A DNA stretch of 1,978 nucleotides, taken from the NCBI RefSeq assembly GCF_003334255.1, contig NZ_QOWU01000142.1, one strand, 5' to 3'. A program made the position numbers and the translations under genes. Below are positions 660-1,978 of this stretch, one piece after another. Positions within the stretch are counted from its first letter, which is position 1. Each line of letters opens with the position of its first letter. The DNA is from Escherichia coli. Its GTDB lineage: Bacteria > Pseudomonadota > Gammaproteobacteria > Enterobacterales > Enterobacteriaceae. The notes under the pieces were generated by a model that was given only the letters and a program-made list of their open reading frames with translations, was not told the DNA's origin and ran no database searches.

Positions 660-938
660 TTACCTCCAGATGCGTTGCAGGAATGTGCGGGACGGACGCG
701 GTGGGCGTTCAGAGTAAGGAAGCCTGACGGAGATTATCCAGTGACGATAATCGAGGCTGAGGGTTTTCCTAAACTCATACCCACGTCTGCGGTAGTTCTG
801 AATCAGCCATTCGGCCTGTTCTTCAGTGCATGGGGCGTGCTGTAACCTGTCAGATTTGAATGCATGAGAACGCCGCCCGTGCCTGCTGGCAAAGACGGCT
901 GAATTATCAGAATTGTATAATTTGGTATCGTGCGCCAT
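660..938 (-). CDS. Hypothetical 92-aa basic protein, apparently translationally coupled to the downstream DUF968 gene
   Basis: ATG at 938-936 to TAA at 662-660: MAHDTKLYNSDNSAVFASRHGRRSHAFKSDRLQHAPCTEEQAEWLIQNYRRRGYEFRKTLSLDYRHWIISVRLPYSERPPRPSRTFLQRIWR. Its TAA stop sits between the GGAGG and the GTG start of the next gene (GGAGGTAACGTG). The Shine-Dalgarno site is weak (GAGA), and I recognise no family. It occupies the position between hok and the DUF968 gene that rem occupies in the K-12 Qin prophage (positional analogy only, from memory). Confidence 0.5.
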   Translation of the reverse strand: MAHDTKLYNSDNSAVFASRHGRRSHAFKSDRLQHAPCTEEQAEWLIQNYRRRGYEFRKTLSLDYRHWIISVRLPYSERPPRPSRTFLQRIWR

Positions 939-1010: not shown

Positions 1011-1037
1011 AAAAAACAAAACCCGCCGAAGCGGGTT
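1011..1037 (-). terminator. Rho-independent terminator at the 3' end of the hok mRNA
   Basis: On the minus strand: a 7-bp stem AACCCGC / GCGGGTT (1037-1031 pairs with 1026-1020) with a UUCG tetraloop (1030-1027), followed by UUGUUUUUU (1019-1011). Confidence 0.8.
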
Positions 1038-1041
1038 AAGT

Positions 1042-1056
1042 GCGGGTGCGTTGAGG
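1042..1056 (-). promoter_or_regulatory. fbi-like (fold-back inhibition) 3' element of the hok mRNA
   Basis: The minus-strand RNA CCUCAACGCACCCGC is complementary, with one bulged C, to the predicted 5' end of the hok mRNA, GCGGGUGCUUGAGG (1432-1419). This is the arrangement known for plasmid R1 hok mRNA, where the 3' fbi pairs with the 5' tac. Confidence 0.65.
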
Positions 1057-1105
1057 ATGCCTGACTCATCAGAGGTGGCGAGGGATTTCTCCCCCGCCAG
1101 GTCTC

Positions 1106-1261
1106 TTACTCCTCAGGTTCGTAAGCTGTGAAGACAGTGACCTCCGTCTGGCCGGTTCGGATTCGTACCTCGCAGAGGTCTTTCCTCGTTACCAGTGCCG
1201 TCACAATGACGGTAATACAGATGACGATCAGGGCGACTAACATCGCCTTTTGCTGCTTCAT
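1106..1261 (-). CDS. hok: Hok/Gef-family type I toxin, 51 aa
   Basis: MKQQKAMLVALIVICITVIVTALVTRKDLCEVRIRTGQTEVTVFTAYEPEE. It has a short basic N-terminus, one transmembrane helix and the conserved TRKxLCExR...GxxEVxxFxAYE tail. From memory it is nearly identical to E. coli HokD/RelF and close to HokC/Gef. ATG at 1261-1259 is preceded by AAGGAG (1276-1271) with a 9-nt spacer. The stop is TAA at 1108-1106. Confidence 0.93.
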   Translation of the reverse strand: MKQQKAMLVALIVICITVIVTALVTRKDLCEVRIRTGQTEVTVFTAYEPEE

Positions 1262-1318
1262 AGCCTGCTTCTCCTTGCCTTTCGGCGTGTAAGAGGCTAA
1301 CCTACATGTGACTAGCAT
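1106..1318 (-). CDS. mok: Mok-like leader reading frame (70 aa), an in-frame N-terminal extension of hok through which hok translation is coupled
   Basis: ATG at 1318-1316 (MLVTCRLASYTPKGKEKQA followed by the Hok sequence), with GAGG (1330-1327) 8 nt upstream. The in-frame layout matches my memory of chromosomal mokC/hokC. Both the start codon and the Shine-Dalgarno site lie inside the region covered by the antisense Sok-like RNA. Confidence 0.65.
   Translation of the reverse strand: MLVTCRLASYTPKGKEKQAMKQQKAMLVALIVICITVIVTALVTRKDLCEVRIRTGQTEVTVFTAYEPEE
1275..1303 (+). promoter_or_regulatory. Sigma-70 promoter of the Sok-like antisense RNA
   Basis: TTGCCT (1275-1280), a 17-nt spacer, then TAACCT (1298-1303). 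The block CTCCTTGC...GTAAGAGGCTAACCT..ATGTGACTAGCAT runs parallel to the R1 sok promoter and start region as I remember it (CTCCTTGCGC...GTAAGAGGCTATCCTGATGTGGACTAGACAT). The -35 overlaps the hok Shine-Dalgarno site on the other strand. Confidence 0.65.
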
Positions 1319-1381
1319 GAAATTGGCCTCAGATTAATGTTAAGCGTCCTGCAAGACGCATAATGTTAACTGGGGCTTTTC
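1308..1381 (+). ncRNA. sok: Sok-like antisense RNA (type I antitoxin), about 70 nt
   Basis: The start is predicted 5-7 nt downstream of the -10. A single-stranded 5' tail (about 1308-1325) is followed by a long imperfect hairpin (1326-1376) and a UUUU tail. The RNA is fully complementary to the hok mRNA leader, including the mok start codon (1316-1318) and the mok Shine-Dalgarno site (1327-1330). Confidence 0.75.
1326..1381 (+). terminator. Sok stem-loop and intrinsic terminator
   Basis: GCCTCAG (1326-1332) pairs with CTGGGGC (1370-1376). The inner stem TTAATGTTAAGCGTC (1334-1348) pairs with GACGCATAATGTTAA (1355-1369), with one A.A mismatch and two G.U pairs. The loop is CTGCAA, and TTTTCT follows (1377-1382). 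Confidence 0.7.
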
Positions 1382-1382
1382 T

Positions 1383-1418
1383 CTGTCTGCCTTACGGTGG
1401 CATGCCCGAGGCAGACAG
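1383..1418 (-). other. 5' leader hairpin of the hok mRNA
   Basis: A perfect 9-bp inverted repeat, CTGTCTGCC (1383-1391) with GGCAGACAG (1410-1418), around an 18-nt loop containing the self-complementary GGCATGCC. It corresponds to the GGCUxUCUGCC...GGCAGAxAG leader hairpin I recall from R1 hok mRNA. Confidence 0.6.
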
Positions 1419-1432
1419 CCTCAAGCACCCGC
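1419..1432 (-). promoter_or_regulatory. tac-like 5'-terminal element of the hok mRNA
   Basis: The minus-strand RNA GCGGGUGCUUGAGG lies at the predicted 5' end. It resembles the R1 hok 5' end (GGCGCUUGAGG, from memory) and is complementary to 1042-1056. Confidence 0.65.
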
Positions 1433-1436
1433 AGCA

Positions 1437-1464
1437 ATTCTACTTAACTCTCGCTTTACCGCAA
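1437..1464 (-). promoter_or_regulatory. Candidate sigma-70 promoter of the hok/mok mRNA
   Basis: On the minus strand: TTGCGG (1464-1459), a 16-nt spacer, then TAGAAT (1442-1437). The predicted start near 1430-1432 coincides with the tac-like element. Together with the terminator this gives an mRNA of about 420 nt, in the size range known for hok mRNAs. Confidence 0.55.
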
Positions 1465-1646: not shown

Positions 1647-1730
1647 TTACCCACACCGACAAATAACATATACTAAAAAAGCGATAGCCATAGCAACGCC
1701 TGTAATTGCAAATGCTTCAGGCCAGATCAT
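1647..1730 (-). CDS. Candidate 27-aa hydrophobic micro-protein, translationally coupled to the DUF551 gene
   Basis: ATG at 1730-1728 overlaps the TGA stop (1729-1727) of the upstream gene as ATGA. GGAGG (1742-1738) lies 7 nt upstream. The peptide is MIWPEAFAITGVAMAIAFLVYVICRCG, with a TAA stop at 1649-1647, and is essentially one transmembrane helix. Confidence 0.55.
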   Translation of the reverse strand: MIWPEAFAITGVAMAIAFLVYVICRCG

Positions 1731-1978
1731 TGGCGCACCTCCTGCGGCGGTTCTGGTAACGGCATCCAGTCGGTTACATTGCGGCTCTGTGTTTCGAAAA
1801 ATTCATCACCATTACGGACTACATCAAAAAACTCACCGTCTCGATATTGCGCATAAAGAACGAATGCGCCATCACATAAAATAATTACGTGCTGACCATC
1901 ATCCGGCATTCGCTCACTACAGCTTATCCAACCATCCGGAGTTACCGGAGAGTTGCCCGATAGTGCATTCTGCTCCAG
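1727..1978 (-). CDS. DUF551-like phage protein, C-terminal 83 codons; the 5' end probably lies beyond the right edge
   Basis: The frame is open from 1978 to TGA at 1729-1727: LEQNALSGNSPVTPDGWISCSERMPDDGQHVIILCDGAFVLYAQYRDGEFFDVVRNGDEFFETQSRNVTDWMPLPEPPQEVRQ. The pattern GWISxxERMP...V(I/L)(I/L)...VTxWMPLPEPP is what I recall for DUF551. The domain begins upstream of the ATG (1909-1907) used by the ORF track, and that ATG has no good Shine-Dalgarno site, so the real start is probably outside the window. Confidence 0.8.
   Translation of the reverse strand: MEQNALSGNSPVTPDGWISCSERMPDDGQHVIILCDGAFVLYAQYRDGEFFDVVRNGDEFFETQSRNVTDWMPLPEPPQEVRQ

Follow-up and report, generated by a model that had tools for sequence, protein, structure and literature searches.

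A probable complete hok/mok/sok toxin-antitoxin module in the nin region of a lambda-like Escherichia coli prophage

The minus strand of positions 1011-1464 very probably carries a complete and self-contained hok/mok/sok type I toxin-antitoxin module of the hokD/hokW subfamily. The window, that is, the whole 1,978-nt stretch of Escherichia coli DNA analysed here (contig NZ_QOWU01000142.1), is 100% identical to annotated E. coli chromosomes. Within it, the cassette forms a small, separate insert inside the nin region of a lambda-like prophage; the replication genes lie on one side and the Q antiterminator on the other, and the cassette is oriented like the early rightward operon. The prophage context of the locus is intact, and several pseudogenes lie near the cassette. 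The match of the locus to its family is far above chance: the cassette is real, and this allele of it is probably functional. It is also a textbook module, of a kind that is already known to be common and has been annotated and studied. Every element listed in a first-pass annotation of this DNA was found at, or a few bases from, the coordinates given there, and its claim of a complete, autonomous locus is borne out, with all elements present and predicted to fold as in plasmid R1. The elements are listed below; a position p in the mRNA corresponds to window position 1431-p.

1437-1464, minus strand: hok promoter, read from the sequence (-35 TTGCGG at 1459-1464, 16-nt spacer, -10 TAGAAT at 1437-1442)
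G1430, minus strand: hok transcript start (+1), to which position 1 of the Rfam model RF01794 aligns
1016-1430, minus strand: full-length hok mRNA of about 415 nt, from the Rfam start and a terminator scan
1419-1430, minus strand: tac (translational activator element), GGGUGCUUGAGG, at the 5' end of the mRNA
1372-1378, minus strand: ucb (anti-SD box), AAGCCCC, mRNA 53-59
1327-1330, minus strand: mok Shine-Dalgarno (SD) GAGG, mRNA 101-104, 8 nt 5' of the mok ATG, read from the sequence
1106-1318, minus strand: mok reading frame of 70 codons (70 aa), in frame with hok and sharing its end, from the ORF list
1305-1325, no strand assigned: sokT / Sok 5'-tail recognition patch, mRNA 106-126, hypervariable among alleles
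1293-1297, minus strand: dcb, predicted to pair with the mok SD in the 3'-trimmed fold
1271-1276, minus strand: hok SD AAGGAG, mRNA 155-160, read from the sequence
1106-1261, minus strand: hok toxin CDS, 51 aa, MKQQKAMLVALIVICITVIVTALVTRKDLCEVRIRTGQTEVTVFTAYEPEE
1044-1056, minus strand: fbi (fold-back inhibition element), CCUCAACGCACCC, in the 3' UTR and complementary to tac
1011-1037, minus strand: intrinsic terminator of the hok mRNA, from the terminator scan (stem at 1020-1037, stem-loop AACCCGCUUCGGCGGGUU, then a U-run, the T-run of 1011-1019)
1275-1303, plus strand: Sok promoter, read from the sequence (-35 TTGCCT at 1275-1280, 17-nt spacer, -10 TAACCT at 1298-1303)
1310-1380, plus strand: Sok antisense RNA of about 71 nt, its ends mapped from sokW of phage 933W (71 nt) and sokC of K-12

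The covariance scan that the first-pass annotation had proposed as a check matched the leader (1256-1430, minus strand) to the sok family of Rfam, RF01794, at 117.6 bits (gathering score 59; E = 1.2e-27), and the alignment runs end to end, from position 1 to position 157 of the 157 in the model. A plus-strand 'sok' match at 1372-1503 (18 bits, E = 0.31) is chance-like and reflects the near-palindromic 5' hairpin. Sub-threshold Rfam matches to ceN48 and v-snoRNA-1 were taken as chance, and a match to isrK at 1016-1097 (27 bits) falls under the gathering score of 50.

A consensus promoter scan of positions 900-1600 called neither the hok nor the Sok promoter. We rejected this as an argument against the two promoters because the scan is set too strictly to pick up hexamers that are weak or depart from consensus, and because sokW is driven by the same hexamers (PMC8621323); for hok, being missed is what is expected of a weak promoter. 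Its -10 box and transcript start align with those of K-12 hokC and of hokW from Sakai prophage 5 (Sp5), and across our panel of related loci the -10 region is conserved while the sequence upstream of about -20 is mosaic. Both hexamers of the Sok promoter are identical in Sp5 sokW; an alignment of 88 related loci shows no variation in the -35 columns and next to none in the -10 columns. Mutating the sokW promoter showed that antitoxin activity depends on it (PMC8621323). Throughout the panel, the conserved block stops at the promoter on one side and at the terminator on the other, with mosaic flanks beyond, as expected for an autonomous module.

The toxin is a hydrophobic ORF of about 50 aa belonging to the Hok/Gef family: it covers the whole Pfam HOK_GEF profile at 79.7 bits (cut-off 22) and matches PHROG 251, 'MokW-like host killing', at 110.5 bits. 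The NCBIfam Hok models score it under their curated cut-offs (46.8 vs 73); given the unambiguous results of Pfam, PHROG and Rfam, we did not hold this against its place in the family. The mok frame starts upstream of hok, overlaps it, and has an SD of its own that is invariant in the panel of related loci; an in-frame mok of 70 aa (69 aa in hokC) is also found in Sp5 hokW, in K-12 hokC and in 83 of the 115 panel loci. The hok SD, for its part, is invariant across a five-locus alignment that includes R1, hokB, hokC and hokW. Promoter, tac, ucb, mok start, SD boxes, hok and fbi all align with their counterparts in Sp5 hokW, K-12 hokC and hokB, and R1-type hok.

On the opposite strand, a putative cis-encoded antisense gene, Sok, lies over the mok initiation region. 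The RNA, homologous to the annotated sokW and sokC, is predicted to begin with a 15-nt 5' tail that stays single-stranded, to continue as a long terminator hairpin and to end in UUUU (fold of -27.6 kcal/mol; z = -5.9 for 1312-1384). The first-pass annotation had described a Sok of about 70 nt starting near 1308 and an mRNA of about 420 nt; these figures shift by only a few bases, to about 71 nt from 1310 and about 415 nt. The sokT patch shows a mean entropy of 0.84 bits, against 0.09 bits at the third codon positions of hok, a gene nearly without variation, and occurs as 17 different 20-nt variants, which differ from one another at a median of 6 positions. This recognition patch is hypervariable although the prophage copies are otherwise near-identical.

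The folds of the hok mRNA and of Sok are thermodynamic predictions. The 415-nt transcript has a minimum free energy (MFE) of -175.5 kcal/mol (z = -8.1), and 0 of 100 shuffled sequences fold equally well. The predicted MFE fold includes the pairing of tac with fbi, a 12-bp duplex with one bulge (-21.5 kcal/mol) that would close the molecule over a long range, and in it ucb pairs with the mok SD region and would thereby sequester the mok SD. When the 3' end is trimmed, the predicted fold switches, so that tac pairs with ucb and the mok SD and dcb form the target hairpin. In the first 30-40 nt of nascent RNA, tac would sit inside a metastable hairpin of -21 kcal/mol. Both the alternative trimmed fold and this 5' hairpin were obtained in silico.

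Conservation of these pairings was followed in the 88 related loci, where the tac-ucb and SD-dcb pairs are invariant or nearly so. Each of the seven ucb pairs is standard in 87 or all 88 of these loci (two pairs show a single variant), and the tac-fbi pairing is either invariant or G-U. Compensatory changes occur at 11 stem pairs (for example pair 15-46, changed from GC to AU in 27 of the 88 loci), and in hokB two such changes preserve the tac-fbi pairing (GGGUGCCUGAGA with UCUCAUGGCACCC). Pairs in the middle of the target hairpin are poorly conserved. The invariant or nearly invariant boxes, together with the compensatory changes in the stems, point to purifying selection on the RNA mechanism.

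Following the paradigm of plasmid R1, the module might work as follows. A weak promoter would give rise to a stable mRNA of about 415 nt, whose 5' end (tac) would be kept in a metastable hairpin during synthesis; in the finished mRNA, tac would pair with fbi and ucb would cover the mok ribosome-binding site, allowing neither translation nor Sok binding. 3' processing is documented for R1 hok, and a slow 3' trimming would here remove fbi, after which tac would pair with ucb and the mok ribosome-binding site would pass into a hairpin presenting the Sok target loop. A short-lived 71-nt Sok, made from its own stronger promoter on the opposite strand, would pair with this target through its 15-nt 5' tail, leading to a block of mok translation and to RNase III cleavage. 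Upon loss of Sok, mok would be translated and, with it, the overlapping hok, and the 51-aa Hok would harm the inner membrane, an activity established by experiment for the 86%-identical HokW.

By analogy with Sp5 hokW-sokW, the likeliest trigger would be prophage induction, and the likeliest effect would be to help lysis and phage release. Experiments in 2021 showed that locus to be a toxin-antitoxin system, with toxicity and a rescue that depends on the sokW promoter; sokW is lost after mitomycin C, and phage release is halved in a hokW-sokW deletion mutant (PMC8621323). In the window, early rightward transcription would meet the Sok promoter head-on. The 933W/Sp5 locus lies elsewhere, near the end of the phage map and not in the nin region, so that the induction-linked behaviour of hokW may not apply here.

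Instead of helping lysis, the module could serve mainly for addiction, killing cells that lose or excise the prophage (post-segregational killing) and so stabilising lysogeny. We regard this as possible but rather improbable. R1 hok/sok classically acts in this way, the 933W record labels hokW 'prophage maintenance', and the mRNA architecture that delays activation (tac/fbi, 3' trimming) is fully kept; yet according to the sole experimental study of the subfamily it is lysis and phage release that are affected upon induction, with stabilisation unreported (PMC8621323), and chromosomal hok loci have failed in post-segregational killing assays. According to the summary of Pedersen and Gerdes (1999) in bioRxiv 10.1101/2025.08.07.668861, the native chromosomal loci hokA, hokB and hokC gave neither post-segregational killing nor activation by rifampicin. 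It seems unlikely that the main role is abortive infection or exclusion directed at other, lytic phages, whose shut-off of host transcription would deplete Sok and free Hok: the effect on T4 was modest and required a high-copy plasmid, hok was not enriched beside defence systems in a survey (bioRxiv 10.1101/2025.08.07.668861), and the window itself offers nothing bearing on this role. That the cassette is complete in sequence and physiologically silent, a selfish or neutral passenger of the prophage with no meaningful release of Hok at native single copy, would fit the neighbouring pseudogenes and the alleles ruined by insertion sequences (such as that of locus L009), but is decidedly unlikely in view of the regulatory boxes that are invariant or nearly so, the compensated stems, the almost invariant hok, and the activity of the 90%-identical hokW-sokW at single copy in a lysogen (PMC8621323).

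Of 5426 complete E. coli genomes, 3002 carry the leader, at identities of 80-100% and with as many as 8 copies, and the search returned 'none' for annotated features beneath the match. In natural E. coli the complete prophage form is the common one, and present genome annotation still leaves out mok and Sok; the toxin gene of the window bears the RefSeq name hokD (WP_052977210.1). The hypervariable Sok patch raises the question of antitoxin specificity among co-resident prophages; the sample for comparing co-resident copies comprised two isolate genomes with two copies (n = 2). We propose, tentatively, that diversifying selection among lambda-like prophages may act on the 20-nt tail/target patch (1305-1325), and that hok/sok copies residing in the same genome may be mutually orthogonal. 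If so, the Sok of one prophage would be unable to silence the hok of another, the addiction or lysis function of each copy would be private, and competition between prophages could be mediated in this way; the allele of the window would be one among at least 17 specificity types.

Among known systems, mokW/hokW/sokW of Stx2 phage 933W and of Sp5 shares 90.2% nucleotide identity with the window over 95% of positions 1011-1464. The first-pass annotation was right that the family is known, and took the complete prophage form to be less ordinary than it is: this form is common, has been annotated in phage 933W since 1999 and was tested in 2021. The two loci have in common the hok -10 box and start, tac, ucb, the mok start, a 70-codon in-frame mok, fbi and a 16-nt extension of the Sok hairpin. 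They differ at about 7 of 17 positions in the Sok 5' tail/target patch, in the sequence 3' of fbi, terminator included, and in the C-terminus of Hok (FTAYEPEE in the window, FVDYESEK in HokW). K-12 hokC/mokC/sokC (gef) is alike in architecture, with mok in frame with hok, a Hok 84% identical, an identical tac (GGGTGCTTGAGG) and the same ucb and SD boxes, but it is a locus of the core chromosome, flanked by IS186 in K-12, in which the Sok hairpin is without the 16-18-nt extension and the fbi sequence is different. Plasmid R1 hok/sok (parB) arranges its elements in the order seen here and uses the tac-fbi, tac-ucb and SD-dcb pairings in the same way (PMC9841398). Its Hok is just 37% identical and its locus is plasmid-borne; its 5' hairpin carries a longer insertion, and its fbi pairing is split.

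Judged by sequence, the protein is a HokD orthologue and the locus architecture is of the hokW/hokC type. As had been noticed at first pass, the toxin is close to K-12 HokD (94% identity, 48 of 51 residues, with differences I9V, L16I and A42T). K-12 hokD (relF), in the Qin cryptic prophage, has the hok SD, the CDS, the 3' UTR with fbi and the terminator as in the window, and likewise lies upstream of a DUF968 gene (ydfU) and of Q. It is, as also stated then, a truncated remnant behind relBE (PMC12214031): homology begins only about 15 nt 5' of the hok ATG, at about 1275 in the window, and extends to just beyond the terminator. The first-pass annotation had considered that K-12 hokD might have the same upstream region, and this is not so. 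The 3' end of relE is found there, and the full leader of the window occupies the site of K-12 relE. Because relE replaces the upstream sequence, K-12 hokD lacks the Sok promoter, Sok RNA, mok start, ucb and tac; it has no promoter of its own, and relB-relE stand in that place. Conversely, relBE is found neither in the window, as had been said, nor in the 26 kb around it, and the gene is not the third member of a K-12-type relBEF operon. A further difference lies between hokD and ydfU, where K-12 has rem and the window an unrelated 92-aa ORF (660-938). We rejected this ORF as a Rem homologue, a label it bears in some phage records, after BLASTP gave no alignment to K-12 Rem; it has no match in Pfam or NCBIfam, and its sole match is PHROG 1212, of unknown function.

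The relE-hokD junction occurs in 1204 genomes; of the 1210 matching records, 1202 reach 99% identity or more, a near-uniformity that is expected from one recent event. Strain EC25 has an intact leader and, after it, hokD, rem and a DUF968 gene, an arrangement that matches the downstream context of K-12 but has no relBE. With the intact leader so widespread, the junction so uniform and this arrangement in EC25, the earlier suggestion that the intact locus is possibly ancestral to the K-12 form is plausible, and the laboratory reference of K-12, with hokD behind relBE, would then be the derived, truncated form.

We located every element of a complete hok/mok/sok cassette on the window: promoter, mok, hok, Sok, tac (the 5' mRNA end), ucb (the anti-SD box), fbi (the 3' UTR partner) and terminator. 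The first-pass annotation had claimed such a cassette, and its coordinates were right to within a few bases. The Rfam check that it suggested gave a full-length match of the hok leader to the 'sok' model, which describes the sense strand of that leader. The 51-aa hok ORF also matched PHROG 251 ('MokW-like host killing'), and RefSeq names it 'type I toxin-antitoxin system toxin HokD'. The ends of Sok were transferred from the annotated sokW of phage 933W (71 nt) and sokC of K-12. The features, including two neighbouring genes, are as follows.

1459-1464 and 1437-1442, minus strand: hok promoter (TTGCGG and TAGAAT, 16-nt spacing), upstream of the mRNA start at G1430
1256-1430, minus strand: hok leader, Rfam 'sok' over the whole model (117.6 bits, gathering score 59, E = 1.2e-27)
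1316-1318, minus strand: ATG of mok (70 codons), in frame into hok, with GAGG 8 nt upstream
1106-1261, minus strand: hok CDS, 51 aa, Pfam HOK_GEF (79.7 bits, cut-off 22)
1020-1037, minus strand: stem of the intrinsic terminator, T-run to 1011 (terminator scan)
1275-1280 and 1298-1303, plus strand: Sok promoter (TTGCCT and TAACCT, 17-nt spacer), preceding Sok RNA
1310-1380, plus strand: Sok RNA, predicted fold with a free 5' tail of 15 nt, then a long hairpin, then UUUU
660-938, minus strand: 92-aa protein directly 3' of hok (RefSeq annotation)
1727-1960, minus strand: truncated DUF551 gene (prophage record annotation)

In the sampled E. coli genomes with a match to leader 1262-1470, RefSeq carries no annotated feature under it; the current pipeline annotates the toxin and omits mok and Sok. 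The leader has a 16-18-nt insertion (1344-1359, minus strand) that is missing from the Rfam consensus, hokC and hokB and that lengthens the terminator-stem hairpin of Sok; it is shared with sokW of Sp5 (Sakai prophage 5) and 933W, and is therefore a trait of the prophage subfamily. A sub-threshold match to isrK, a Salmonella prophage sRNA (Rfam), was found at 1016-1097 on the minus strand (27.1 bits, gathering score 50, E = 0.0024). This interval, the hok 3' UTR, contains a stable hairpin and the terminator, and the match probably reflects that common architecture, not homology. Low-level A-to-I editing is reported to convert a conserved tyrosine to cysteine in the hokC, hokD and hokE mRNAs of K-12 (PMC12214031; bioRxiv 10.1101/2025.08.07.668861); the Tyr47 codon of the window hok (1120-1123, minus strand) lies in a TACG context, GCTTACGAA, and the editing site is preserved.

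We folded three versions of the transcript: the full-length 415 nt, a form trimmed from the 3' end through fbi, and the first 30-40 nt. The full-length RNA has a minimum free energy of -175.5 kcal/mol (z = -8.1 against shuffles), and in its predicted fold tac (the first 12 nt, GGGUGCUUGAGG) pairs with fbi (CCUCAACGCACCC, 1044-1056), while the mok SD is paired to ucb (mRNA 53-59). Removal of the 3' end switches the prediction: tac pairs with ucb, and the mok SD and dcb, the downstream box (1293-1297), close the base of a hairpin that presents the Sok target in its loop. In the first 30-40 nt alone, tac is predicted to be locked in a hairpin of -21 kcal/mol. These three predicted folds are those of the three-state scheme of plasmid R1 hok mRNA (PMC9841398).

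In a promoter-to-fbi alignment with Sp5 hokW, K-12 hokC, K-12 hokB and an R1-type hok, tac-fbi complementarity is present in every locus and is kept in hokB by two compensatory changes. We also assembled 115 loci, mostly IMG/VR viral contigs, chosen for the same first 23 mRNA nt, a selection that fixes those positions; 79 of them have the 51-aa hok, the 70-aa in-frame mok, fbi and the Sok promoter hexamers exactly as in the window. Among 88 aligned loci (members at least 80% identical), tac-ucb and SD-dcb form standard pairs in at least 87, and compensatory double changes occur at 11 stem pairs (e.g. 15-46, G-C to A-U in 27 loci). Conservation extends over mRNA positions of roughly -20 to +415, with mosaic sequence on both sides, so the inherited and exchanged unit is exactly the cassette that the first-pass annotation had delimited.

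Within this block a single stretch is hypervariable: mRNA 106-126 (window 1305-1325, both strands), complementary to the 5' tail of Sok and situated between the mok SD and mok codons 2-5. Entropy there averages 0.84 bits and exceeds 1 bit at 10 of 21 sites; the third codon positions of hok average 0.09 bits, and 0 of 51 exceed 1 bit. It comes in 17 distinct 20-nt variants (median of 6 mismatches between variants), and the mok SD, mok ATG and Sok promoter flanking it are invariant or nearly so. In both of the two-copy isolate genomes of the sample the patch differs between co-resident prophage copies, one pair being 96% identical overall. This variability fits a diversification of antitoxin specificity. 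Alternatively, a non-functional N-terminus of Mok under relaxed constraint could account for it, in combination with effects of sampling and relatedness. The literature that we checked, with partial coverage, contained no discussion of it.

Several E. coli chromosomes match the window at 100% identity, e.g. that of strain JE86-ST05, whose record places it within a lambda-like prophage. The genes listed lie on the window minus strand, in the transcription order cro-like regulator (adjoined by a repressor gene on the opposite strand), replication genes (DnaT-like protein, P), small 'nin-region' genes, truncated DUF551 gene, two small ORFs, hokD, the 92-aa hypothetical protein, DUF968 gene, RusA, antiterminator Q, and tRNAs, lysis genes and terminase. 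The sole hit of the 92-aa protein is PHROG 1212, a family of unknown function. Some phage records tag its interval 'rem' or 'toxin to Rem', and we rejected that identity, the protein being unrelated to K-12 Rem; an alternative, longer TTG-initiated frame (660-1019) would overlap the hok terminator. Just past the stop of a 34-aa ORF, and some 13 nt upstream of the hok -35, lies a perfect 22-bp palindrome, CGATATGGGAATTCCCATATCG (1477-1498). Exact copies occur in 27 of 131 fetched loci, its distance to hok is identical in the three loci checked, and no T-run follows it on either strand; it may act as a terminator-like hairpin or a protein-binding site, or mark a module junction.

The window Hok is 94% identical to HokD (RelF) of the K-12 Qin prophage, as close as had been proposed, and 86%, 84% and 37% identical to HokW, HokC and R1 Hok. 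The K-12 order is relB, relE, hokD, rem, ydfU. The two loci are near-identical from 'AGGAGAAGCAGGCTATG' through hok, 3' UTR, fbi and terminator, and homology ends some 15 nt upstream of the hok ATG; there the end of relE stands in K-12 instead of the leader. K-12 hokD thus retains SD, CDS and fbi and has lost Sok promoter, Sok, mok start, ucb, tac and its own promoter, which bears out the earlier description of it as truncated. Of 5426 complete E. coli genomes, 3002 carry leader 1262-1470 (80-100% identity, up to 8 copies per genome); the relE-hokD junction occurs in 1204 genomes, and 1202 of its 1210 matching records show an identity of 99% or more, a uniformity to be expected of a single recent rearrangement. 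In E. coli EC25 (2524-2950 of the fetched locus L011) an intact leader precedes hokD, rem, a 92-aa ORF, a DUF968 gene, RusA and Q, i.e. the downstream context of K-12 Qin without relBE, and this is a likely precursor state of the K-12 relBE-hokD fusion. From this distribution, rather than a dated phylogeny, we infer that the complete form is commoner and older than the K-12 form, in support of the suggestion that an intact version may be ancestral. In E. coli LD39-1 (2541-2810 of locus L009), next to ydfW, flxA and ydfV as in Qin, the hok leader and first ~20 mok codons are intact and an ISNCY-family transposase fragment then replaces hok, a natural case of this locus inactivated by an insertion sequence.

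Sequence, predicted structure and conservation support an R1-type mechanism for the cassette; toxicity, Sok expression, 3' trimming and RNase III cleavage would be expected here from homologues. Its biological role is less certain: the sole data for the subfamily point to help with post-induction lysis, while prophage maintenance and exclusion of other phages are possible roles. The locus might instead be intact yet silent, as native hokA, hokB and hokC are reported to be (bioRxiv 10.1101/2025.08.07.668861), but the strong conservation of the regulatory boxes in the 88-locus alignment argues against silence.

The cassette belongs to a family that is already known, a 2025-26 survey counting 44,248 Hok homologues and finding them enriched in prophages (bioRxiv 10.1101/2025.08.07.668861). 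It occurs at ~87% identity over 90% of its span in P1-like phages and plasmid prophages (MH422554.1, MH445380.1 and others), so the module moves between lambda-like and P1-like elements. A phage recorded from Actinobacillus pleuropneumoniae (PP818812.1) matches at 93.4% identity over 98% of the cassette length, an unexpected host for an enterobacterial module that could reflect mislabelling, contamination or recent transfer. In the Stx2 phage 933W, GenBank AF125520.1 annotates mokW, hokW and a 71-nt 'SokW antisense RNA' at a locus 90.2% identical to the window cassette over 95% of its span. Takada et al. 2021 (PMC8621323) studied the identical locus of Sp5: HokW is toxic, sokW neutralises it from its own promoter, with a partial contribution of RNase III and Hfq, mitomycin C eliminates sokW and increases HokW in a way that depends on RecA, and deletion of hokW-sokW halves phage release. 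Unlike the Sp5 and 933W loci, the window cassette lies in the nin region; it is oriented along the early rightward operon, and with this orientation induced read-through transcription would be expected to collide with that of Sok. Both Sok promoter hexamers are identical to those of sokW; given these, the annotated 933W locus and the Sp5 experiments, the window carries one more allele of a module already known and characterised, and the original observation is confirmed and its interpretation supported.
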